Positions 48,296-60,905 of a stretch of DNA of 64,000 bases are shown here, piece by piece (within the stretch, counting starts at the first letter, position 1; each line of letters begins with the position of its first letter). The stretch covers positions 12,284 to 76,283 of the forward strand of contig JAYTHE010000006.1 of NCBI GenBank assembly GCA_043732705.1. Direction: 5' to 3'. A model generated the notes under the pieces. That model made no database searches. It worked only from the letters and a program-made list of their open reading frames with translations, and was not told the DNA's origin. The position numbers were made by a program, and so were the translations under genes. This stretch comes from Candidatus Omnitrophota bacterium. Lineage in GTDB: Bacteria; Omnitrophota; Omnitrophia; Omnitrophales; Aquincolibacteriaceae.

Positions 48296-51105
48296 GTTCG
48301 ATTGAGCTGCGTCGTGTTTCAACCCATAATTTAAAAGGGTTCGACCTCCGGCTTTCCCATCGCAAAATTCATGTTATGACCGGTGTCTCCGGCTCCGGAA
48401 AATCTTCTTTGGCATTTGATACGCTGTATGCCGAGGGCCAGCGCCGCTATATGGAATCGCTTTCTTCGTACGCTCGTCAGTTTCTTGAAAAAATGCCCAA
48501 GCCGGATATTGAATCTGCGACAGGGATCCCTCCTGCCGTTGCGATCCAAGCCAAAAACGTTGTTTCCAACGCAAGGTCGACAGTCGGCACTCAAACCGAA
48601 GTGAACGATTATTTACGGTCGCTTTTTGCGCGCGTAGGACATTTGCATTGCCCTGATTGCCAAGGCACGGAAGTGACCGCCTACCAAACAGACTCTGTTT
48701 TAAACCAGATTTGCGGCGAAAAAGCAGACCGTTTGACGGTATTTTTCCCTTTTATGCTAAAAAAGAATTCAAAGAGTGAAGCGGAGGCGCTGGCCTCGGA
48801 CTTTCTGAAACAGGGTTTTGAGCGCTTTTCCGAACCCGGCAAAGAATGGATTTCGATTCAAGCCGACAAGCTTACCGGGAAAAAAGTCCGCGAGATTGCC
48901 GTGCTTGTCGATGAGCTTGCAAATACCGCATCCAATCGAAACCGGATAAGAGAGGCTCTCGAATTGGCTTTTCAGGCGGGGCAGGGACGGGTAGGTGTGA
49001 TAAGCGGGAAAGCCACGCAATGGTTTTCAAAAGATCTGCAATGCTCTTCCTGCCGCCGTATTTTTAAAAAGCCGACTGAAAACTCTTTTTCATTCAATAG
49101 TCCGATCGGGGCCTGTCCGGTTTGCCAGGGTTTTGGACGGGTGATTGAAACCGATTGGAATTTAGTTATTCCGGATGAGTCCAAATCAATTCAAGAAGGC
49201 GTGATTGAGCCTTGGACCAAAGCCAGTACACGCTGGGAATTAGGGCAGCTGCTCGATTTTTGTAAACGTAAAAAAATCTCAGTTAAAGTTCCATGGAAAG
49301 AGCTTGAACCTAAACAGCGTAAATGGATTTTATATGGCTGCGAGGGAGATGAGTTCGCGTCCGTAACCGAGTTTTTTAAATATCTCGAAAAGAAAACTTA
49401 CAAAATGCATATCCGCATTTTTTTAAACCGCTACCGCGGCTATGCGGTTTGTCCCGCCTGCAAAGGTGTGCGGATTCAACCCGACGCTTTAAACGTATTT
49501 GTCGGCAGGAAAAATTTTGCGGATATTCAGGAAATTAAAATCAACGCGTTGGCGCTTTTTTTCAGAGATTTAAAGTTAACTTCTTATGAAACCGAAAGAG
49601 CGGAAGCGCTTTTGGATGAAATTCGCGCGCGCCTCGGCTTTTTAAGCGAAGTCGGTTTGGGATATTTGACGCTTTCGCGGATGTCGCGCACGCTTTCCGG
49701 CGGCGAAGTTGAAAGAATTCATTTGGCATCATCGCTCGGCGCTTCGTTGGTTGACACGCTGTATGTTTTGGATGAGCCGAGCATCGGATTGCATGAGCGT
49801 GATAATCAGATGTTGATTGGGCTTTTACGAAAGCTGAGAGATTTGGGAAATACCGTGGTTGTTGTGGAGCATGACCGTACGATGATCGAAGCTGCCGATG
49901 AGGTGGTTGATTTAGGGCCGCGCGGCGGCGAAGGCGGCGGAAAAATTCTTTACCAGGGCCCGGTAGCGGGGCTTTTACAATGTGAAGAATCGCTGACAGG
50001 GCGTTACCTGTCGGGACGCGAGACGCTATCACGTTTAAGCTCTGCGTTCGCGCAACCGCGACAACAGGCAAAGGCGATAAAAATTTTGGGTGCTTCCGCA
50101 CACAATTTAAAGAATTGCGATGTTGAAATTCCTTTGGGGAAACTTGTCGTGCTTTCGGGTGTTTCAGGTTCGGGGAAGAGCACCTTACTTTATGATGTGT
50201 TGTACAACCGTTATCAAAAATACCGCGGCCGCGCCATTTCACAGGAAGACTTGGGAGCGGTGAAGTCGATTCGCGGCTGGGATACGCTTGGAGATATGGT
50301 TTTGATCGATCAATCGCCGATTGGGCGTTCCCCGCGGTCAAATCCCGTGACTTATATGGGTATTTACGATGAAATCCGCAAAATATTTTCGCGGCTTCCC
50401 GCGTCCAAAGCGCAGGGGTTTGGTCCTGGACATTTTTCATTTAATGTGGACGGCGGACGCTGCAATGCCTGCAAAGGCGACGGCGAAGTCAAAGTTGAAA
50501 TGCATTTTCTTGCGGATGTTTATGTGCGCTGTGAAGCCTGCGGCGGAAAGCGTTTTCAACGGGACGTGCTTGCGATTACCTATCAGGGAAAAAATATCGA
50601 CAAAGTTTTGGGAATGACCGTAACCGAGGCGCTGAATTTTTTTTCAAAGTCGCCCGCAATCGTGAAATCTTTGACGATTCTAGAAAATACGGGGCTGGGT
50701 TATTTGCGTTTGGGTCAGCCGACATTGACTCTTTCGGGCGGGGAAGGACAAAGGCTTAAATTAGCGAGCGAGCTGGCCGCATCGCAATCTTCAAAGCAGC
50801 TTTATCTTTTTGATGAGCCGACAACGGGCTTGCATGAACATGATATCCGCTATCTGATCAAAGCTTTTGACGAATTGCTTGCGCGGGGACATTCCGTGCT
50901 GGTGATCGAGCATCACATGGAATTAATTCGACTTGCCGATTGGGTGATTGATCTAGGTCCCGAAGGCGGAGATGCCGGCGGCGAAGTGGTTTATCAAGGC
51001 GACGTAAAAGGCCTGCTCAAATGCGCACGGTCGCATACGGGGCGCTGTTTATCGCAATACCTCCAAAAAACAAGTTTGAAGATTCCCGCTCTTCAAACGT
51101 CTTAA
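48292..51105 (+). CDS. uvrA: excinuclease ABC subunit A
   Basis: THNLK...GVSGSGKSSLAFDTLYAEGQRRY, two ABC ATPase modules, zinc-finger Cys pairs; TTG start. Confidence 0.9.
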   Translation: MSSIELRRVSTHNLKGFDLRLSHRKIHVMTGVSGSGKSSLAFDTLYAEGQRRYMESLSSYARQFLEKMPKPDIESATGIPPAVAIQAKNVVSNARSTVGTQTEVNDYLRSLFARVGHLHCPDCQGTEVTAYQTDSVLNQICGEKADRLTVFFPFMLKKNSKSEAEALASDFLKQGFERFSEPGKEWISIQADKLTGKKVREIAVLVDELANTASNRNRIREALELAFQAGQGRVGVISGKATQWFSKDLQCSSCRRIFKKPTENSFSFNSPIGACPVCQGFGRVIETDWNLVIPDESKSIQEGVIEPWTKASTRWELGQLLDFCKRKKISVKVPWKELEPKQRKWILYGCEGDEFASVTEFFKYLEKKTYKMHIRIFLNRYRGYAVCPACKGVRIQPDALNVFVGRKNFADIQEIKINALALFFRDLKLTSYETERAEALLDEIRARLGFLSEVGLGYLTLSRMSRTLSGGEVERIHLASSLGASLVDTLYVLDEPSIGLHERDNQMLIGLLRKLRDLGNTVVVVEHDRTMIEAADEVVDLGPRGGEGGGKILYQGPVAGLLQCEESLTGRYLSGRETLSRLSSAFAQPRQQAKAIKILGASAHNLKNCDVEIPLGKLVVLSGVSGSGKSTLLYDVLYNRYQKYRGRAISQEDLGAVKSIRGWDTLGDMVLIDQSPIGRSPRSNPVTYMGIYDEIRKIFSRLPASKAQGFGPGHFSFNVDGGRCNACKGDGEVKVEMHFLADVYVRCEACGGKRFQRDVLAITYQGKNIDKVLGMTVTEALNFFSKSPAIVKSLTILENTGLGYLRLGQPTLTLSGGEGQRLKLASELAASQSSKQLYLFDEPTTGLHEHDIRYLIKAFDELLARGHSVLVIEHHMELIRLADWVIDLGPEGGDAGGEVVYQGDVKGLLKCARSHTGRCLSQYLQKTSLKIPALQTS

Positions 51106-51151
51106 TAGTACAGGGTTTGAAAAGCGGCTTTCCGCAAGGTACACTTAAAGG

Positions 51152-51736
51152 ATGAATCTTTTTACTTCCAAGAAACATTTTTACATGGCGGGATATCTGT
51201 TGTTGATAGGTTTTTTACATGTGAATGCCATTTTGAAAGCGGAGGATCCGATTGCGGACACGCAAACAGAAGCCATTTCTTATGATCAAAAAATGGAACA
51301 AGATAAAGATGGAGTCAAAGCTCCGGCAACTCCCAAAATGATTTATTACGGCGGACAGGGGTTTTTAACCCGGAGTTCCTTGTCGAAATACGAAAATGAA
51401 ATTGCTTCTGCTTCAAAGGGCAAGAAAAAAGAAAAATTCAACTGGTCCGATTGGTGGGAAGATAAGCCATCTGAAACTCAAACGGACACGGCAGAAATTA
51501 AGCCTGCGGAAACAGTTGAGCCGGAAATACTTCAAGGCACGGATTTGCCGGCGGCGAAAGACAGTAGTTTGGATTCACAGCAAACGGATATAAAAGAAAA
51601 AAAGACGGATGAAAAACCGGCCGGTTCGGCTCAAACCGTCTTGGAAGAAGAAAGTTTCCCAGGGGAAGAAAGTGCGGCTCCGGATCAATCTCAGCCTCCC
51701 GCAGGGGGGAATACGAAGGGTGACGATTGGTGGTAG
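51152..51736 (+). CDS. hypothetical secreted/membrane-anchored acidic low-complexity protein (ends ...GDDWW)
   Basis: N-terminal hydrophobic segment then E/D/K/T-rich disordered sequence. Confidence 0.4.
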   Translation: MNLFTSKKHFYMAGYLLLIGFLHVNAILKAEDPIADTQTEAISYDQKMEQDKDGVKAPATPKMIYYGGQGFLTRSSLSKYENEIASASKGKKKEKFNWSDWWEDKPSETQTDTAEIKPAETVEPEILQGTDLPAAKDSSLDSQQTDIKEKKTDEKPAGSAQTVLEEESFPGEESAAPDQSQPPAGGNTKGDDWW

Positions 51737-51851
51737 AAGCAGTTTTGAGGGATAAAATGAGGGCTTTTCACGTATTTTATTCCAATTCAGTTTCAGACTC
51801 CAAAGCCGTTAATTCTTCAGGTAATTAAGGTCTGCACGACCTGGTCCTTTT

Positions 51852-51860
51852 TGATATAAT
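51852..51860 (+). promoter_or_regulatory. extended -10 promoter element TGATATAAT upstream of the FtsH-like gene
   Basis: Consensus TGnTATAAT read from sequence; -35 weak. Confidence 0.35.
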
Positions 51861-51913
51861 CCTGTCTTTATTGCGCCTTCTTTTAGGTGCGTTTCTAAGG
51901 AGAACACGAATTT

Positions 51914-53593
51914 ATGGTCATGAAAAAACGCCGCTTACAGCTTTTCTTTATTGAGCATGGTGGAACCATGGGTGTGATTGCGGGCGCCTTGGTCTTGATC
52001 GCGTTATGTGCATGGGGATTGATGAGCCTCGAAAGTTATTATCGAAATATTACTCTTGCTCAGATTCCGCTTAATTTTCTTTCGGTGATCGTGAATGCGG
52101 TTGTATTCGCTTACATCTACATGAACATGATGGGCCGCGGCTTTTCAGGTATCGGAAAGAAAGGTATTAAGGCCAATCAGGTTAATATTAAGTTTGATGA
52201 CGTGGTGGGAATTGATGAAGCAAAAGATGAATGCCGTGAAGTTGTGGACTTAATCAAAGATCACACCCGTCTTAAAAATATCGGCGGAAAAATTCTGCGC
52301 GGCGTTCTCATGATCGGGCCTCCGGGCTGCGGGAAAACCTATATTGCGAAAGCAATCGCGACTGAAACCGGCTTACCGTTTCTTTCTATGGCGGCCAGCG
52401 AATTCAACGAAGTGTTTGTGGGTGTTGGTGCAAGCCGTGTCCGTCAGCTTTTCAAAAAAGCACGCCGTTTGGCTTATGGCTATGGCGGCTGCGTGATATT
52501 TATCGACGAACTTGATGCCATGGGGCAAAAGCGTACTTTCAGCCAATTTGGCAGCGGCGAAGGCAATACGACCCAAAACCAGTTGCTTGTGGAGTTGGAT
52601 GGATTGGGTGGCGGTGCGACTGAGAATATTGTCGTCATCGGCGCGACCAACGCTTCCGAAGATATTTTGGATCCCGCGCTTTTGCGTCCGGGCCGTCTTG
52701 ACCGCAAAGTTTATATCAACAAGCCTAATTTGGAAGGCCGCGAAGCCGTGTTTAATCTTTATCTTAAAAAAGTAAAACATGATTCGAGCGTCGACCCCAA
52801 ACGTTTGGCGCGTCGCGCAATCGGTTATTCTCCCGCAGAAATTGAAAACGCGGTAAAAGAATCCGCGCTTGTAGCAACACGCAACAAACGCGACGTGATT
52901 ACTTGGAGCGATATGACGGAAGCCTTGGACCGTATTGAGCTTGGTTTCAAAATTAAACTGACGATTAATTCAAGAGAACGTGAAATGACGGCTTATCACG
53001 AAACGGGTCATTTGATTATCACGTATTTGCTTCATCCACGCGACGATGTCTTTAAGGCGTCTATTTTGCCGCGTAAAAACACCTTGGGTGTGGTTTACCA
53101 TGTTCCTTTGGAAGAGTGGCACACGCAAGACAAGGAGTCCTTAACAGCTCAAATCAAGATTGCTTTGGGCGGATTTGCCGGAGAACGCGTCAAATATGGA
53201 ACATCCACATCGGGTGTTTCTTCGGATTTTAAATCTGCGATGGGAGTTGCGCATACCATGGTTTGGAAATTGGGTATGGGGCCGTCCAGCCTTGTCGGAG
53301 ATTTTACAGTTGTGCCCGAAGGGCAATTATCGCGCGAAGTGGTGACTCAGTTGAGTCAAGATACTCAAAAAATTCTTACGGATTGTTTGAAAGAAGTAGA
53401 AGATTTATTGCGCAAAGAAAAGCCGTTGTTTGAACGTTTTGCCCAAGAATTAATTTCTAAAGGCGAGTTGCAGTATGACGAAATTGAGGCGATTTTTGCT
53501 GAGTTTGGGAAGGTCAATCCCAGAAAATTCGGCGGATCGGTTGCTTCTGCTGCTTCTGCGGACTCGAAGTATTTGCCGCCGTCTGCGCGTTAA
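51914..53593 (+). CDS. FtsH-family ATP-dependent zinc metalloprotease paralog with minimal periplasmic loop
   Basis: Two N-terminal TM helices ~14 aa apart, Walker A GPPGCGKT, second region of homology, HETGH zinc motif; 559 aa. Confidence 0.8.
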   Translation: MVMKKRRLQLFFIEHGGTMGVIAGALVLIALCAWGLMSLESYYRNITLAQIPLNFLSVIVNAVVFAYIYMNMMGRGFSGIGKKGIKANQVNIKFDDVVGIDEAKDECREVVDLIKDHTRLKNIGGKILRGVLMIGPPGCGKTYIAKAIATETGLPFLSMAASEFNEVFVGVGASRVRQLFKKARRLAYGYGGCVIFIDELDAMGQKRTFSQFGSGEGNTTQNQLLVELDGLGGGATENIVVIGATNASEDILDPALLRPGRLDRKVYINKPNLEGREAVFNLYLKKVKHDSSVDPKRLARRAIGYSPAEIENAVKESALVATRNKRDVITWSDMTEALDRIELGFKIKLTINSREREMTAYHETGHLIITYLLHPRDDVFKASILPRKNTLGVVYHVPLEEWHTQDKESLTAQIKIALGGFAGERVKYGTSTSGVSSDFKSAMGVAHTMVWKLGMGPSSLVGDFTVVPEGQLSREVVTQLSQDTQKILTDCLKEVEDLLRKEKPLFERFAQELISKGELQYDEIEAIFAEFGKVNPRKFGGSVASAASADSKYLPPSAR

Positions 53594-53615
53594 GAACGCT
53601 GTTCTAAGCCGCATT

Positions 53616-55196
53616 ATGGCGAATAAACAAAAATCAGTCCTTCGCAAAGTTGCGCAAGGACTGATTTTTGTTTTTATGCCGATTTTGCTACTTTCCGCGT
53701 GTTTGAAAAGTACTTATCCTGAAAACTACGTCAAAGAATCCATTCTTAAAATTCTTCGTACGGAATACAGCATTCCCATGGCCCAGGTTGAGATTACCGG
53801 GAAAACGATTCATCTCTACCTGCCTGTCGAACGTTTGTTTACGGCGGACCTTGATGATATTAAAGTCTCTTTTGTGAGAATTTTGGGCATTCCCGTAAAA
53901 AATGGTTTTGTCGTGTGGACTGCACGTATTCTCTCGGGTCCGCAGGACGGTTATTGGGAATTGCTGGCGAGAATGTATCACGCGGAGCTTCTCCGCTGGT
54001 TCAAAATGGATTGGGTTGAGACGAAAGCAGAAAAGAAAAAAATCGAAAAAATTCAAGACGCGATTGAACTTCACCCCGAAGTTCAGGATGAGATCGGTCA
54101 AATGTTGTTCGCGGTGGCGCGCGTCGCACGCAGTACGGATCTCAAGCTTGATTTTTATGCCGCGCAAATTACAGACGTGAGATCAGGGCATGAATTTATT
54201 CTGCAGGGCTATTTGCAGGATATGAATCGCTTGCAGCTCATGGATATTTCTCAGGCCGAGTATCACAAGCGTATGCTGAAAGACACGCATGTGAATAACC
54301 GCGCACAAGTTCATTTTCCGGTGCGGAACTTTTTTTTAGATTTGAATCAAAAAACACGGGAAGACGTGCAGCAAAAGTATTTTGAAAAACTCACTTCTTT
54401 GGATTGGATGGACCGGTTCTATTTTAGAGACAAGAAGAAAAAGCTGTTTCCGGTTTCACAGATGACTTGGGAGATTGAGGATATTCGCAGCTTTTTAAGC
54501 CCCGCCGGCGGGCGTGCGTTGGTCTATGTAAAAACGGAAATGCTTTCGCGCACCGATCAGAAGACCGTAAAACCCCTGGAAGAAGAGTTTTTATTTGAAA
54601 TTTTGATTCGGAGCAAGTCGGTTCAAATTTTACGGATCATTCCGTTCAGTCTTTTAAATGAGATGTTGGCGGGCATGCCGGAATTTAATATGAGCGAAAA
54701 GACATTGCAGGAAAATATCAAGACATGGCGTTCGGAATTTGAACCAAAAGAAATTTTTCTCGAAGATTTTTTAGCCAAACAAATGATGATGCGCCTTTAC
54801 GATGATATTTATCAGGATGAACGCATCGCGAATACCTTTACCGACCTGCACTTTGAAGTCCGTTTCCGGCGTGAGCCCAAACGTGAATTTGTTTTTGAGG
54901 TGCGTCCAGCGTTAAAAGACCCGAAGGCCATTACTTCGGGCAGGCCTTTGTCGGAGCATGAGGACATGGTTTATTTGGAGAATCAATTTGTAAGCCGTGC
55001 GGCAGCCACTTTCCATAGTTATGGGTATAAAGATTTTGAAAATATGACAATCGAGCTTCCCGCTGAGGGCGAGAGGCTCATCGTGTCACCGGACCATTTA
55101 GAGCTCTTTTACCGCAAGAAGAAGCGCTTGGGAGATGTTTTACTGCGTGACAGTAACCCTATTCCGTCTGAGGAAACAGTTCCCCAAGGCAATTGA
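53616..55196 (+). CDS. large lipoprotein of unknown function (526 aa, lipobox LLSAC)
   Basis: Start placed at MANKQK ATG (53616); the track start at 53475 would overlap the FtsH-like 3' end. Confidence 0.5.
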   Translation: MANKQKSVLRKVAQGLIFVFMPILLLSACLKSTYPENYVKESILKILRTEYSIPMAQVEITGKTIHLYLPVERLFTADLDDIKVSFVRILGIPVKNGFVVWTARILSGPQDGYWELLARMYHAELLRWFKMDWVETKAEKKKIEKIQDAIELHPEVQDEIGQMLFAVARVARSTDLKLDFYAAQITDVRSGHEFILQGYLQDMNRLQLMDISQAEYHKRMLKDTHVNNRAQVHFPVRNFFLDLNQKTREDVQQKYFEKLTSLDWMDRFYFRDKKKKLFPVSQMTWEIEDIRSFLSPAGGRALVYVKTEMLSRTDQKTVKPLEEEFLFEILIRSKSVQILRIIPFSLLNEMLAGMPEFNMSEKTLQENIKTWRSEFEPKEIFLEDFLAKQMMMRLYDDIYQDERIANTFTDLHFEVRFRREPKREFVFEVRPALKDPKAITSGRPLSEHEDMVYLENQFVSRAAATFHSYGYKDFENMTIELPAEGERLIVSPDHLELFYRKKKRLGDVLLRDSNPIPSEETVPQGN

Positions 55197-55227
55197 AAAA
55201 AGCCACGAATTTGCTATCATACGCGCC

Positions 55228-56009
55228 ATGCTAAGCCTTAGTTCTCGCCAATCATTTATTCTTAACCGGGTTGTGGATACATTTATTGAAACAGGGCATC
55301 CAGTGTCCTCACAAGCGGTGGCCTATGCCAGCCCTTCGCCGGTTTCTTCCGCTACAATTCGTAACGAAATGGGTACGCGGAGGATACGGGCTATCTTGTT
55401 CAGGCGCATCATTCCTCAGGCCGTATTCCCACCGACCGCGGTTACCGTCATTATTTGGATCATGGCATTGAGTCTTGTGAAATAAAAGGGGAGCTGTCAC
55501 GCCAATTGTCCGCAAGTTTTTTGAATCGTTTTAAAACTATGGAAGACACCCAGCCTTTTGCCGAAGAGATTACAGCCGTTCTTTCGGAGCTTTCGAGGCA
55601 GCTGGGTGTTTTGCTTGTGCCTGATACCGGTCCCGAAACTTGGAGCGAAGACCGGATGCAAATGAAGGCGCAAGGTTTGCGTTATTTATTGGAAAATCCG
55701 GAATGTCAGAACTCCGCGACGCTCCGTCCGCTTGTGCGTGCAGTCGAAGAAAAGGAAGCTTTGAAACGTTGGATCGGTGAGCATGCCTCTGAAGCAAATA
55801 CACAGGCTTTTGTCGGATCGGAGCATGAATTTGAAGAACTTGAAAATTATACGATTGTGACCGCCCGTTTTGAGTCGGGCGCGCATGGCCCGTCAGGGGC
55901 TGTCGCGATTATTGGATTGAAACGCATGGCTTACGCGAAAGTTTTGCCGATTGTTTCGGAAATGGCCCATTTAATGGGAACAACTTTTCGCGCGATGCGT
56001 CAAGGTTAA
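55228..56009 (+). pseudogene. hrcA: heat-inducible transcription repressor HrcA, interrupted by an apparent 1-nt frameshift at ~55371-55374 (GGG run): N-terminal part in one frame, remainder in the +2 frame
   Basis: Frame A: MLSLSSRQSFILNRVVDTFIETGHPVSSQ...SATIRNEMG; frame C continues YAEDTGYLVQAHHSSGRIPTDRGYRHYLDHGIE... to a typical HrcA C-terminus; joined reading restores the HrcA signature ATIRNEMxxLE(D)xGYL. Confidence 0.55.
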
Positions 56010-56021
56010 CGGGGGAAAAGC

Positions 56022-56597
56022 ATGAAAGACAAAGAAACGGAAGATAAACTGAAATCTGAAAAGCAGACGGATGAAACAGTTGAAATTTCACGTGCCGAGC
56101 TTGAAAAGTTGCAGGCGCAGTTAGCCGAGGCAGAAGGTATGCGTGAAAAACTTTTGCGTTCTGCCGCGGATTTTGAAAACGCTAAAAAACGTTTGACGCG
56201 CGAACGTGAAGATTTTATTAAGTTCTCACAGGAAAGCCTTTTGGGTGATTTGCTGCCGATTCTCGATAATTTTGACCGCGCCTTGGGACACCAGGCTAAT
56301 CTTGAGACCTTGGACGCTGAGGGACTTAAAAAACAGCTTAAATCGCTCATGACCGGTATGCAGATGGTGAAGAAGCAGTTTATGGATGTATTGCAAAGCC
56401 AGGGTGTTAAAGTGATTTCTGCATTGGGCGAAATTTATGACCCGCATAAGCATGAGGTGATTGAATACGTTCCGGGCGAGGGTAAGCCGGATGAAATTAT
56501 CACGGAAATTCAAACCGGTTATCTTTTGCAAGACCGCTTATTACGCGCAGCGAAAGTGCGCGTGCGTTCCGCGGCTCCCAAGCCCGAAGCTTCGTAG
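56022..56597 (+). CDS. grpE: nucleotide exchange factor GrpE
   Basis: Coiled-coil N-terminus, GrpE C-terminal motifs. Confidence 0.9.
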   Translation: MKDKETEDKLKSEKQTDETVEISRAELEKLQAQLAEAEGMREKLLRSAADFENAKKRLTREREDFIKFSQESLLGDLLPILDNFDRALGHQANLETLDAEGLKKQLKSLMTGMQMVKKQFMDVLQSQGVKVISALGEIYDPHKHEVIEYVPGEGKPDEIITEIQTGYLLQDRLLRAAKVRVRSAAPKPEAS

Positions 56598-56605
56598 ATT
56601 TGACT

Positions 56606-57691
56606 ATGGCGCAGAAAAGAGATTATTACTCGGTGCTTAGCGTTGAGCGCACCGCGACTGGCGAAGAAATTAAAAAATCCTACCGTAAAGTTGCGATGCA
56701 ATACCACCCCGACCGTAACCCCGGCGATCATGCCGCCGAAGAAATGTTCAAAGAAGCTGCAGAAGCTTACGCTATTTTAAGCGATTCAGCCAAGCGCGCT
56801 CAGTACGACCAATTCGGCCACTCGCTGGGCGGTGGGCGCGGAGGTTTTTCCGGTGATTACGGAGACGTCGGTGATATTTTTGAAGATGTATTTGAAGGTT
56901 TTTTTGGAGGAGGCGGAAGACGCAATCCCAACCGTGCACAAAAAGGCTCAGACCTCGAATATAAAATTGAAATGACTCTAGAAGAAGTTTTGAAGCCGAA
57001 AACTTTGGATCTTAAAATTCCGCGGCTGGAAAACTGCAGTGAATGTTCTGGAAGCGGTGCCGCGCCCGGATCTAAAAAAGTAACCTGTAATGATTGCCGC
57101 GGCAGCGGACAGATTCGTGTTTCCCAGGGTTTTTTTAATATGCAGACGACTTGTCCGCGCTGCCGCGGAGCAGGCGCATTTATTGACAAGCCCTGTAAGC
57201 CTTGCGGCGGTGCCGGACGTGTGAGAGATACACGCAAGCTGGAAGTGAAGATTCCGGCAGGCATGGACCATGGAACGCGTCTTAAAGTAACAGGGGAAGG
57301 CGAGGCGGGACAAAATGGCGGGCCGCGCGGAGACTTGTATGTTCAGGTGCTACTCAAAAAACACGATTTGTTTGAGCGGAATCATGAAGATATTCATTGC
57401 GAATGGAGTATTCCGTACACAGCGGCAGTTTTGGGCGGGACAGTTTCAGTTCCGACGCTTGAAAAAGAGGCAAGTTTAAAAATTCCTGCCGGCACAGTTC
57501 CGGGAAGAGCTTTAAAAGTTGAAGGCGCCGGTATTCCGTTTGTGCGTTCGCCTGACCGTCGGGGAGACCTTTACATCCATGTTCAGATTGAAGTGCCCGA
57601 AAAAGTTTCCAAGCGTGAAAAAGAGCTTTTGGAAGAGTTGGCCAAAGAGCGCGGCGAGAAAGTAAAAGCAAAAAAAGGGATGTTTAGTTAG
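56606..57691 (+). CDS. dnaJ: molecular chaperone DnaJ
   Basis: J-domain with HPD, G/F-rich region, four CxxCxGxG zinc-finger repeats. Confidence 0.9.
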   Translation: MAQKRDYYSVLSVERTATGEEIKKSYRKVAMQYHPDRNPGDHAAEEMFKEAAEAYAILSDSAKRAQYDQFGHSLGGGRGGFSGDYGDVGDIFEDVFEGFFGGGGRRNPNRAQKGSDLEYKIEMTLEEVLKPKTLDLKIPRLENCSECSGSGAAPGSKKVTCNDCRGSGQIRVSQGFFNMQTTCPRCRGAGAFIDKPCKPCGGAGRVRDTRKLEVKIPAGMDHGTRLKVTGEGEAGQNGGPRGDLYVQVLLKKHDLFERNHEDIHCEWSIPYTAAVLGGTVSVPTLEKEASLKIPAGTVPGRALKVEGAGIPFVRSPDRRGDLYIHVQIEVPEKVSKREKELLEELAKERGEKVKAKKGMFS

Positions 57692-57983
57692 GTTCTGTCG
57701 ACCTTTTTTATAAAATAGCGACAGGCCCGCATTGCAAGCAGTACAAGGAACGAGGGAGGAAGGCGCACCCGTGTGGTGCGTCGACGATGGAGTGACGAAG
57801 TAATGCTTCGCAATCCGTCCTGTCCCTCTGAAAATATCATTAACGGGTTATGGTGGCATGGTTGCCATTCCGGCGTTGTTTTCTCCTTGGCGTAGTGCAT
57901 CGACTACGCCGTCGTCGTCACGCCTTGGACTGACAACCATGGCACTCATAACGCTAATTTACAAAAAAGGTCGGCAGAACCTC

Positions 57984-58406
57984 ATGGAATATTTTGATTA
58001 TCACACCCGCGTGATTTACCGCGATACCGACAAAATGGGTATCAGTTATTACGCTAACTATTTTGTTTGGTTTGAGGCTGCACGCACCGAATATTTCCGG
58101 GCTTTGGGATTGCCCTATACAGAATGCGAAAAAAAGGGTATTTTCCTGCCTGTGATCGAAGCGAATGCCAAATATATCGCGCCCTCGACTTACGATGACA
58201 AATTAATCGTTAGAACAAGCGTCAGTAAATTTACACCGAGCACAATCCGTTTCGAATATTTGGTTGTCAACGCCGCGACTGAAAAAATTCTGACGCAAGG
58301 TTTTACGGTACATGTTTTTGTTGATCGAGAAATGAATCCCTGCCGCGTTCCCCACGAAGTCGAATCAATCGTAGAGATTTATTCGCTGTTTGATTCCAAA
58401 AAATAA
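57984..58406 (+). CDS. YbgC/4HBT-family acyl-CoA thioesterase
   Basis: YYANYFVWFEAARTEYF hot-dog fold signature; start placed at MEYFDY ATG. Confidence 0.7.
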   Translation: MEYFDYHTRVIYRDTDKMGISYYANYFVWFEAARTEYFRALGLPYTECEKKGIFLPVIEANAKYIAPSTYDDKLIVRTSVSKFTPSTIRFEYLVVNAATEKILTQGFTVHVFVDREMNPCRVPHEVESIVEIYSLFDSKK

Positions 58407-58699
58407 ATTCTGCGTTGCAATTTTTAGAATGATGTTGCGGTTGAGCGAAGCTCAGAGCAAAAAAATATCTCAGAGAAATCACAGAAAAATTTTGACTGTG
58501 TGCCCGCACGGTGTTAAAGTAGCCGCGCTTCGAAAGACCTTGTCCCACGGGCTTTTCCGCGGGATACTATTTATTCTGCTCCGAGCTTTGCTTAACCGCA
58601 AAGTAATGGCTTAGCATGGACGAAGCGAATTGAAATTCAAAAGCGGGACGATGTTTGTTGCGCTCTGAGCCGCGGCTCAATCGCAAAACAAAAGGAAAG

Positions 58700-59710
58700 A
58701 TGGCTGGAACCGAACGAGTGACTGTTTTGGGGGATGGAGGATGGGGGACAGCGCTTGCGCTTGTGAACGCGCGGCGCGGAAATGATGTCCTGCTATGGTC
58801 CGCTTTCCCCGAATATGCCGCGCAAATGAAAGAGCGCCGTGAAAATTTTAAATTTCTTCCCGATGTACCGCTTCCGAAAAATATTCATATTACTTCTGAC
58901 TTGAATGAAGCGCTGCTTTTCGCCGAAATCGTTATTTTAGCTATTCCGACGCAATTTATGCGTAGTGTTCTTCAAAAAGTGCGGCCGCTCGTGCGCGGAA
59001 AAAAGATTTTTGTCAGTGTTGCCAAGGGCATTGAAAAACAAACCTGTATGCGACCCTCGCAGATCGTTTCAGCCGAATTGGGCGATGTTCCGCTTGTCAT
59101 TTTAAGCGGTCCTTCGCATGCCGAAGAGGTTTCGCGCGGTATTCCGACTCTGGTTGTGGCGGCTTCCAAAAAAGTGGAATACGCGAATAAGATTCAAGAG
59201 ACGTTTAAAGACAAATTTTTCCGTATTTATGTTCAGCATGATTGGGCCGGTGTAGAGTTGGGTGGCGCTTTGAAAAATGTCGTTGCTGTCGCGGCGGGAG
59301 TTTGTGACGGCCTTGGCTTTGGAGATAACACGAAATCAGGCCTTTTAACCCGCGGCCTTTTTGAAATGAGCCGTATGGGCGTAAAAATGGGTGCGAATCC
59401 GACAACTTTTTTTGGACTTTCGGGCGCGGGCGATTTAATGACGACTTGCTTCTCAAATCATGGACGTAATTTAAAAGTCGGCCGCGAATTAGGTAAGGGC
59501 CGTAAGATCAAAGAAATTTTAGATGAAATGGAAATGGTCGCGGAAGGCGTTGCGTCCGCGGAGGCTGTGCATGAACTTTGCCAACGCGAAGGCATTTCTC
59601 TTCCGATCATGGAAGAGGTTTATAATATTCTTTGTAAGGATAAAGATCCCAAACAAGCGGTTTCCGACTTACTGAGCCGTGACGCATACGAAGAGTGGAA
59701 ACAGTACTAA
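58700..59710 (+). CDS. gpsA: NAD(P)H-dependent glycerol-3-phosphate dehydrogenase
   Basis: VTVLGDGGWGTALA Rossmann motif, GpsA C-terminal domain; RBS AAGGAAA. Confidence 0.85.
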   Translation: MAGTERVTVLGDGGWGTALALVNARRGNDVLLWSAFPEYAAQMKERRENFKFLPDVPLPKNIHITSDLNEALLFAEIVILAIPTQFMRSVLQKVRPLVRGKKIFVSVAKGIEKQTCMRPSQIVSAELGDVPLVILSGPSHAEEVSRGIPTLVVAASKKVEYANKIQETFKDKFFRIYVQHDWAGVELGGALKNVVAVAAGVCDGLGFGDNTKSGLLTRGLFEMSRMGVKMGANPTTFFGLSGAGDLMTTCFSNHGRNLKVGRELGKGRKIKEILDEMEMVAEGVASAEAVHELCQREGISLPIMEEVYNILCKDKDPKQAVSDLLSRDAYEEWKQY

Positions 59711-59717
59711 TGGTCCC

Positions 59718-59814
59718 TGAAAAACTCTCATCTGCTGCGTTGCAAGCAGCGCTTCTTTGTGCGGCGTATTTCCGTATACGCCTCCGCAGTCGCTCGCTTG
59801 CGCCTTGCATCTAA
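59718..59814 (+). repeat. family-B repeat copy after the gpsA stop
   Basis: Aligned by eye with 17086 and 27694 copies. Confidence 0.6.
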
Positions 59815-59913
59815 GAATTTTTGAGTGACCATTTAAAAGATTTTTTCGAACAACAACAAAGTCAGACGATGTTAATAAATAGCTTCGTTTGGTTTTTATA
59901 ACAGGAGCATCAA

Positions 59914-60186
59914 GTGAATAAAGCAGAACTTACGCAAGCAGTTGCGTTGAAGACAAAATTATCTAAAGCTAAGGCAGCAGAAGCGCTTAACGCCGCTTTT
60001 GATACCATTCAAGCTTCCCTCAAAAAGGGTAAGAATGTTGCTTTGATCGGTTTCGGAACTTTCAAAGTTCGCAGCCGCAAAGCACGCACAGGCCGCAATC
60101 CTCAGACCGGCGCTGCGCTTAAGATCAAAGCTTGCAAGGTTCCTGCTTTTTCCGCTGGTAAAGCGTTGAAGAAAGCTGTTAACTAA
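59914..60186 (+). CDS. hup: DNA-binding protein HU
   Basis: MNKAELT...GFGTFKVRSRKARTGRNPQTG HU/IHF signature; GTG start with AGGAG. Confidence 0.85.
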   Translation: MNKAELTQAVALKTKLSKAKAAEALNAAFDTIQASLKKGKNVALIGFGTFKVRSRKARTGRNPQTGAALKIKACKVPAFSAGKALKKAVN

Positions 60187-60202
60187 GCTTTTCTGATTTA
60201 AG

Positions 60203-60237
60203 AGCCGCGCGCGGGAAACCGTGCGCGGCTTTTCTTT
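60203..60237 (+). terminator. rho-independent terminator after the HU gene (AGCCGCGCGC...GTGCGCGGCT + T-run)
   Basis: 10-bp stem with one mismatch, 8-nt loop, TTTTCTTTT tail. Confidence 0.6.
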
Positions 60238-60284
60238 TGCTGTTTTTTTAGGTTCTGAGCTGTGCTCAACCGTATTAATTATTT

Positions 60285-60743
60285 ATGAAAATTATTTTTG
60301 GATTAGGCTGGGCAGAGGGCCGCGTTAAAAACCATCTCAGGGCTTTTAAAGATCAATCCGCCGCTGAATTATTCGAAAAATACCGCGAGCGAATCGCGCA
60401 TGATTTTGGCTGCGGAGCCATGCCGATGCCCTTTGAAGATTTAAAAAAGCAAAGTGGGCTCATTTGGATCTGTGAACGTTCAAAAAAAAGCAAAATGCTT
60501 GCGAGCGAAGAGTTGTCCGCCCGCTTTCAAAAAATTTGTGATTCCGGAACTAAGAGTTTAACTATTTGGATCGGCGGTCCCGACGGGCTTACTCCTGAAC
60601 AGATAAACACGGTTCAAACAGATTTAATCTGGTCTTTTGGCCCGATGACTTTACCGCATGAGCTGGCTTCGGTGGTTGCGGCTGAACAGCTTTATCGCGC
60701 TGTTTCCATTCTCAAAAACCACCCCTACCACACGGGACATTAG
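60285..60743 (+). CDS. rlmH: 23S rRNA (pseudouridine1915-N3)-methyltransferase RlmH (SPOUT)
   Basis: C-terminus IGGPDGL...LPHELA...YRA.SI..NHPYH matches RlmH. Confidence 0.75.
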   Translation: MKIIFGLGWAEGRVKNHLRAFKDQSAAELFEKYRERIAHDFGCGAMPMPFEDLKKQSGLIWICERSKKSKMLASEELSARFQKICDSGTKSLTIWIGGPDGLTPEQINTVQTDLIWSFGPMTLPHELASVVAAEQLYRAVSILKNHPYHTGH

Positions 60744-60789
60744 GTATTTTTAAAGCCTGAAGCGCGTTAAAGGGCTGCCTGTTTAAGTT

Positions 60790-60817
60790 TTGGAACAGGG
60801 TCTAATTATGATATACT
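60790..60817 (+). promoter_or_regulatory. promoter TTGGAA-N16-TGATATACT directly upstream of tRNA-Pro
   Basis: -35-like and extended -10 read from sequence, ~14 nt before the mature tRNA 5' end. Confidence 0.45.
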
Positions 60818-60830
60818 CTCGGCCTATCAT

Positions 60831-60905
60831 CGGGACGTAGCGCAGACTGGCTAGCGCACACGCTTGGGGTGCGTGAGGTCGCAGGTTCAAATCCTGTCGT
60901 CCCGA
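60831..60905 (+). tRNA. tRNA-Pro (anticodon GGG)
   Basis: Hand-folded: acceptor CGGGACG/CGTCCCG, D-arm GCGC..GCGC, anticodon stem CACGC/GCGTG loop UUGGGGU, T-arm GCAGG-TTCAAAT-CCTGT, discriminator A. Confidence 0.8.

Follow-up and report, generated by a model that had tools for sequence, protein, structure and literature searches.

The repressor gene hrcA of an uncultured Candidatus Omnitrophota genome (a metagenome-derived assembly) is interrupted by the deletion of a single base between positions 55378 and 55379 of the window, by which we mean the whole 64-kb stretch of DNA that was analysed. The best and most likely reading of this lesion is a recent and genuine loss-of-function allele, with read error as its main rival; that we are looking at a recent null allele carried at the level of a strain or population is, in our judgement, probable. 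The absence of a CIRCE operator and of dnaK from the hrcA-grpE-dnaJ operon is a separate matter, since both are old traits of the clade to which the window belongs and are independent of the hrcA deletion.

Reading frames of hrcA and position of the missing base

The hrcA gene starts with the ATG at 55228 on the forward strand. Its frame 1 product, MLSLSSRQSFILNRVVDTFIETGHPVSSQAVAYASPSPVSSATIRNEMGT, runs from MLSL to SSATIRNEMGT and thereafter consists of out-of-frame residues until a premature TAA at 55483 to 55485. The remaining HrcA is carried by the other frame (GYLVQAHHSSGRIPTDRGYRHYLD ... FRAMRQG), in which the last codon ends at 56006 and the stop occupies 56007 to 56009. This other frame has a stop of its own at 55362 to 55364, so the frame switch must come after 55364. 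The 5' part of the gene (55228 to 55378, +) comprises codons 1 to 50 plus the first base (C) of Leu codon 51. Most of the winged-helix DNA-binding domain, as far as the recognition helix, is encoded here, and this part by itself matches positions 2 to 44 of TIGR00331. The 3' part (55379 to 56009, +), read in the shifted frame, supplies the wing (GYLVQAHHSSGRIPTDRGYRHY) followed by the C-terminal domain of HrcA and contains no additional stop or frameshift. Both hallmarks of HrcA, the SSATIRNEM recognition helix and the GRIPTDxGYR wing, are present but split over two frames, and with the 1-nt deletion at 55378/55379 no uninterrupted frame joins the two domains. The frame 1 product would be 85 aa long, with 50 native and 35 out-of-frame residues.

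When the missing base is restored as a T, the joined HrcA is 260 aa long and scores 75.2 bits against Pfam PF01628 (gathering cut-off 22.2), the match covering profile positions 94 to 214 of 215 and leaving the first 93 unmatched. It also matches TIGR00331 with an E value of about 1e-54 to 1e-56, aligning to positions 2 to 126 and leaving about 127 to 220 unmatched. Its TIGR00331 score of 190.1 bits is below the NCBIfam equivalog cut-off of 197.2; intact relatives score 198.3 (P0005) and 183.8 bits (P0012), which places the short form of this lineage around the threshold. The N-terminal domain of the repaired protein aligns to residues 14 to 97 of the Thermotoga maritima structure 1STZ (E = 5.8e-16).

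The original prediction recognized the frameshift correctly and placed it in a GGG run (55371 to 55373, in a stretch given as 55369 to 55376), a position that the DNA and proteins of the relatives do not support. The four nearest genomes (L002 to L005) read GAA ATG GGx GCx CTG/CTT/TTG GAr GAy at this site and the window reads GAA ATG GGT ACG C-G GAG GAT, so that the T of CTG (Leu51) is the base that is absent. The window version of the site is ACGCGGAGG and the T-containing version ACGCTGGAGG. At the protein level the consensus of the aligned intact relatives (n = 16) is EMG[TAS]LE[ED]TGYL, with the Leu nearly invariant; insertion of the T gives EMGTLEDTGYL, which fits this consensus, and repair of the GGG run gives EMGYAEDTGYL. 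The two repairs are 6.6 bits apart against TIGR00331 (190.1 bits for the T repair vs 183.5 for the GGG-run repair). The site itself, ACG C^G GAG, lies outside any homopolymer or other repeat. The earlier proposal to look for GGGG in the reads was consequently directed at the wrong position; the base at issue is a T between nucleotides 55378 and 55379. Annotations of hrcA should place the frameshift at 55378/55379 and not within the GGG run, and the database protein of 167 aa called HrcA (P0011) is a mere fragment.

Genuine mutation or sequence error

A scan with one genome per species yielded 80 loci for comparison, 27 of them (L002 to L028) with an HrcA 32 to 75% identical to that of the window and 53 others (L029 to L081). 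The nearest loci are from Candidatus Omnitrophota MAGs, with HrcA identities of 75% (L002), 71% (L003), 65% (L004) and 63% (L005). In the protein database the repaired HrcA is 58 to 78% identical over its full length to 16 intact relatives of 259 to 266 aa (most of them 62 to 78%), the database search itself listing them at 59 to 77%. All 27 related species genomes, like these 16 database relatives, carry an intact copy of the gene. The NG86 dN/dS of hrcA against the relatives is about 0.06 to 0.12 with dS saturated (at least 1.7), so that only the dN relative-rate comparison is informative. By that comparison the window gene is not accelerated relative to its nearest relative L002: its dN to L003 is 0.214 vs 0.250 for L002, and its dN to L004 is 0.288 vs 0.316. 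Because the gene shows no other damage and evolves no faster, the deletion appears to be recent and not the mark of an old pseudogene.

The main rival explanation is that the organism's hrcA is intact and that the T was lost in the reads or in consensus calling, for example through low coverage or mixed strains. We consider this rather unlikely, and there is evidence on both sides. An hrcA that is otherwise perfect and conserved is what a functional gene would look like, and the intact gene in all 27 related genomes points the same way. The stop 537 nt before grpE could have polar effects on two co-chaperone genes of the essential type, which would make a fixed null allele somewhat costly. Furthermore, the assembly is metagenome-derived and a single run (SRR23617244) is known to contain this genome. 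From that run, the Logan contig L001 matches window positions 50461 to 60905 at 100% identity over 10,445 nt without gaps, deletion included. Its ends differ from those of the window (L001 stops, for instance, at a tRNA, 60905), which marks L001 as a separate assembly, and the presence of the same deletion in it rules out a single assembler, or polishing, as the source.

The two assemblies nevertheless probably derive from the same reads, and a systematic read error or the majority consensus of a mixed population would be shared by both. Against this, Logan contigs are built from k-mers present at least twice, by which rule several reads should carry the deletion; the contig was not broken by any competing path, and the two different assemblies are identical across 10.4 kb. 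The site is also not a homopolymer, whereas the indel errors of HiFi, 454 and Ion Torrent reads concentrate in homopolymers. Elsewhere the window is clean: about 90% of it is coding, its 54 long ORFs (three of which measure 1589, 937 and 816 aa) show no evident split gene apart from hrcA, and no second frameshift is evident in the 64 kb. The only near-identical database entry is P0011, the 167-aa call, which begins at an internal TTG start of the hrcA 3' fragment; the protein collection searched contained no intact allele of more than 78% identity, and an exact-pattern scan of JGI metagenomes, covering the sequence both with and without the added base, returned 0 matches. Sequence error, one of the possibilities raised originally, is thus excluded as the work of one assembler, and at the level of the reads it stays the main rival. 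The genuine-mutation reading, raised alongside it, is favoured in the form of a recent loss-of-function allele by the single lesion, the lack of acceleration and the agreement of two assemblies.

CIRCE and dnaK in the window and its clade

The original prediction found no CIRCE near the operon, and this holds well beyond it: TTAGCACTC-N9-GAGTGCTAA has no counterpart in the whole 64 kb when as many as 5 mismatches are tolerated. Logan contigs allowed us to reach beyond the window by 5.5 kb downstream, including clpB, and by 0.3 kb upstream. The clpB gene lies just past the window end (L082 3946 to 6537, about window coordinate 64821 onward), 8.8 kb 3' of hrcA, with its own promoter region. No CIRCE was found 5' of clpB, and the 64 kb together with the 5.5 kb past its end contain neither groESL nor dnaK nor CIRCE; tblastn with E. 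coli queries gave no matches for DnaK, GroEL, GroES or ClpB in the 64-kb window. A search for CIRCE with up to 5 mismatches over the window, L082 and the 27 clade loci returned only background, with at least 5 mismatches in the clade loci. No short inverted repeats were found 5' of hrcA or clpB, and visual comparison of the hrcA promoters of the clade showed a conserved -10 region and no palindrome.

The distribution of CIRCE among the 80 loci is sharply divided. Within 400 nt 5' of hrcA it is present in 0 of 27 loci of the clade (L002 to L028), where the best match has 6 or more mismatches and is background, and in 40 of the 53 others (L029 to L081) with 0 to 3 mismatches, mostly 0 to 2. The operons divide likewise: hrcA-grpE-dnaJ wherever the sequence is long enough in the clade, with a DnaK match in no locus, and mostly hrcA-grpE-dnaK-dnaJ among the others, several CIRCE-bearing Omnitrophota among these (L045, L048 and L050) having CIRCE-clpB-hrcA, unlike the window's genome with its distant clpB. 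In the window, the absence of dnaK between grpE and dnaJ that had been predicted is borne out by the coordinates, since the grpE stop ends at 56597 and dnaJ begins at 56600 or 56606. The canonical order with dnaK in between is found neither in the window nor in the 27 clade loci, and the window has the Thermotoga-type order of hrcA, grpE and dnaJ. The regulon architecture called atypical in the original prediction is therefore real, but it is a clade trait with a precedent in Thermotoga and is unconnected to the frameshift. Being common to genomes with an intact hrcA, the missing CIRCE and dnaK are uninformative on the deletion.

The length of HrcA, about 260 aa, is also typical of the lineage and compares with 338 aa for the canonical protein. 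The region missing with respect to TIGR00331 (about 127 to 220) corresponds to approximately residues 98 to 234 of 1STZ, and the same shortening is seen in Omnitrophota that have CIRCE. Because the clade conserves the recognition-helix motif S[SP]AT[IVL]RxEM, a CIRCE-like operator would be expected at groESL and/or dnaK elsewhere in the clade genomes.

Gene decay and recoding

A further reading of the lesion holds that the lineage gave up HrcA and CIRCE, that CIRCE and dnaK are missing for this reason and that hrcA is decaying as an old pseudogene. It can draw on the clade-wide absence of CIRCE 5' of hrcA, on its absence 5' of clpB in the window's genome, and on the close relative L084, which has an independent hrcA frameshift with a T5 run where T6 is needed. 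We nevertheless find it very improbable, given that an intact hrcA is present in 27 of 27 clade genomes and 16 of 18 close database relatives, that the clade has kept its recognition helix, that dN/dS is well below 1 and that the window gene has a single lesion and no acceleration. L084 itself is a 1.2-kb scaffold with the indel in a homopolymer, a typical error context.

The L084 sequence (ENA ERZ28573553 scaffold, 1241 nt) encodes P0017, which is 78% identical to the window HrcA, and its frameshift at about 600 to 690 is elsewhere in the gene than that of the window, T6 being needed for ...PVFFIGCEHEF.... This second frameshift could reflect an error in a homopolymer of a short scaffold, or else be another null allele of natural origin. 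Our literature search found nothing pertinent on natural hrcA frameshifts, no paper combining 'Omnitrophota' with 'HrcA' and none naming the run SRR23617244.

The slippage-dependent expression suggested originally, in which ribosomal frameshifting or transcriptional slippage near the GGG run would sometimes restore full-length HrcA, is exceedingly improbable: one shift into the other frame would indeed restore the protein, and two rare Arg codons (CGG AGG) come next in frame 1, but the indel is outside the GGG run and any repeat, there is no X XXY YYZ slippery heptamer, the tRNA on ACG would be unable to pair again with TAC after moving one base back, a -1 slip would put Ala in place of the nearly invariant Leu, three G's are too few for transcriptional slippage, stalling at rare codons favours +1 shifts, which is the wrong direction, and a frameshift at this position occurs in none of the 27 genomes and 16 homologues, so that among more than 40 relatives nothing is conserved. 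Neither a slippery sequence or homopolymer at the site nor a conserved frameshift, the usual signs of programmed frameshifting, was thus found.

Genomic neighborhood and promoter of hrcA

The two genes downstream of hrcA are intact. The grpE gene (56022 to 56597, +) encodes 191 aa, scores 151.7 bits against PF01025 and is 89% identical to its L002 orthologue. Only a few bases 3' of it, dnaJ (56606 to 57691, +, with a start at 56600 or 56606) encodes 361 aa with a J domain, Zn-finger and C-terminal domain (PF00226, PF00684, PF01556). Upstream of hrcA are a gene for an FtsH-like AAA+/M41 protease (51914 to 53593, +, 559 aa, HETGH) and one for a protein of 551 to 573 aa without Pfam match (53475 or 53541 to 55196, +), which is the immediate neighbor of hrcA. 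The order FtsH-like, 551-573 aa protein, hrcA-grpE-dnaJ is the same in the 12 related loci that have both upstream genes, among them L002 to L006, L008, L018, L021, L024, L027 and L028. The two upstream ORFs overlap by 53 to 119 nt, and the conserved C-terminal motif of the second, DLELF(Y/R)RKKK, ends just 5' of the hrcA promoter.

A promoter-like site, TTGAAA-16 nt-TATCAT with a TG-extended -10, occupies 55193 to 55220 (+) and ends 7 nt before the hrcA ATG. It is the best sigma-70-like match in the region from 51.5 to 58.7 kb, with 10 of 12 positions. Because this putative promoter abuts the ATG, the hrcA mRNA is probably leaderless, which would leave no operator space between promoter and gene. 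Across much of the clade (L002 to L028) a strongly conserved (T)TTGCTATCAT(A)CCCGCC box is found 7 to 9 nt before the hrcA start codon. The proteins P0012 to P0016 are annotated with an N-terminal extension, 'MIRAM', that starts at an ATG within the -10 box (TATGAT) and is probably a gene-calling artefact.

An operator 5' of the FtsH-like gene, for an operon starting there, was considered and rejected, since the region has its own promoter and a small hairpin and no CIRCE. The promoter, again TG-extended, lies in window positions 51800 to 51913 (TTTTTGATATAATCC; TGATATAAT), and the small conserved hairpin in the 5'UTR (GCGCCTTCTTTTAGGTGCG) is, like the promoter, common to the window, L002 and L003. 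In L002 a long perfect inverted repeat, GATCTTCGACTTACATACTGAA...TTCAGTATGTAAGTCGAAGATC, is inserted at about 2440 to 2560 between the promoter and the start codon of the FtsH-like gene; it is MITE-like and absent from the window.

Six other loci (L007, L010, L012, L013, L015 and L017) have an insertion of about 130 nt that separates the conserved promoter from the hrcA start. The insert of L010 (1945 to 2090) contains a perfect 18-bp stem in which CCCCGUUAGAUCUCUGAC is paired with the Shine-Dalgarno and GUG start region (-42.9 kcal/mol, z = -2.2), and it may represent either a MITE bounded by terminal inverted repeats or an element that controls translation. An RNA thermometer was rejected for the window, which is without any UTR, and the L013 insert folds no better than its shuffles. 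An Rfam scan of the window found two tRNAs only and no known RNA thermometer or leader.

Predicted consequences of the deletion

If translation begins at 55228, probably on a leaderless mRNA, ribosomes would leave the HrcA frame right after the recognition helix and stop at 55483 to 55485. The resulting 85-aa product would be without the wing and the whole C-terminal domain, and any product of a downstream restart would be without the DNA-binding domain. Since neither product would be complete in these respects, we infer that this allele is unable to make a working repressor. The targets of HrcA, probably groESL and/or dnaK elsewhere in the genome, would then be constitutively expressed, a physiological consequence that we purely infer because no CIRCE, groESL or dnaK lies within the 64 kb and the 5.5 kb beyond. 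As translation of the gene ends 537 nt before grpE, a polar drop in the translation and transcription of grpE-dnaJ would also be possible.

The frameshift is an ordinary single-base disruption of a well-known repressor gene, seen in one metagenome-derived genome of a little-studied phylum, and at most it predicts constitutive chaperone expression in the source population. The clade itself poses a modest question about heat-shock control, as it is a sizeable group of Omnitrophota with an intact short HrcA in an operon of its own that has neither CIRCE nor dnaK. A tentative proposal, which we regard as unlikely, is that this clade (at least 27 species-level genomes and the window) has uncoupled hrcA from CIRCE autoregulation. 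The hrcA-grpE-dnaJ operon would be transcribed from the conserved TG-extended -10 promoter, probably as a leaderless mRNA, with dnaK and clpB located elsewhere; HrcA would act on distant targets only, or on a different operator, and would be dispensable enough for natural null alleles to occur (the window and L084). The second frameshift in L084 lends weak support to such rewired HrcA control and a tolerated loss.

Comparison with known systems

The short HrcA of Epsilonproteobacteria (NF003033, a 264-aa model) is similar in length to the window protein. Membership in that family was rejected, as the match is weak (54.5 bits vs a cut-off of 248) and N-terminal, being limited to the DNA-binding domain.

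With the HrcA/CIRCE system of Bacillus subtilis and other Firmicutes (hrcA-grpE-dnaK-dnaJ and groESL operons) the repaired protein shares the winged-helix N-terminus SSATIRNEM...GRIPTDRGYR and PF01628, and hrcA likewise heads an operon that includes grpE and dnaJ. The window differs from the Firmicutes system in that its hrcA is broken, its HrcA lacks about 78 aa in the middle region, no CIRCE lies upstream, the operon has no dnaK, and the putative promoter adjoins the start codon, with a probably leaderless mRNA and hence no space for an operator downstream of the promoter.

The order hrcA-grpE-dnaJ is not new, as it is already known from T. maritima, where dnaK is in a separate dnaK-sHSP operon (PMC11277822). 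The window has this same order, and the alignment of its HrcA to 1STZ includes the PVSSQ and SSATIRN motifs. The T. maritima HrcA is an intact protein of 338 aa, in contrast to the short and frameshifted HrcA of the window. The hrcA operon of T. maritima is controlled by CIRCE, unlike that of the window and its clade, where CIRCE is absent.

Closer at hand are other Omnitrophota and neighbouring uncultured lineages (L029 to L053), which share with the window a short HrcA (about 230 to 270 aa), the phylum label and a grpE gene after hrcA. They differ from it in having dnaK between grpE and dnaJ and a canonical CIRCE, with 0 to 2 mismatches, 40 to 205 nt 5' of hrcA or of clpB-hrcA.
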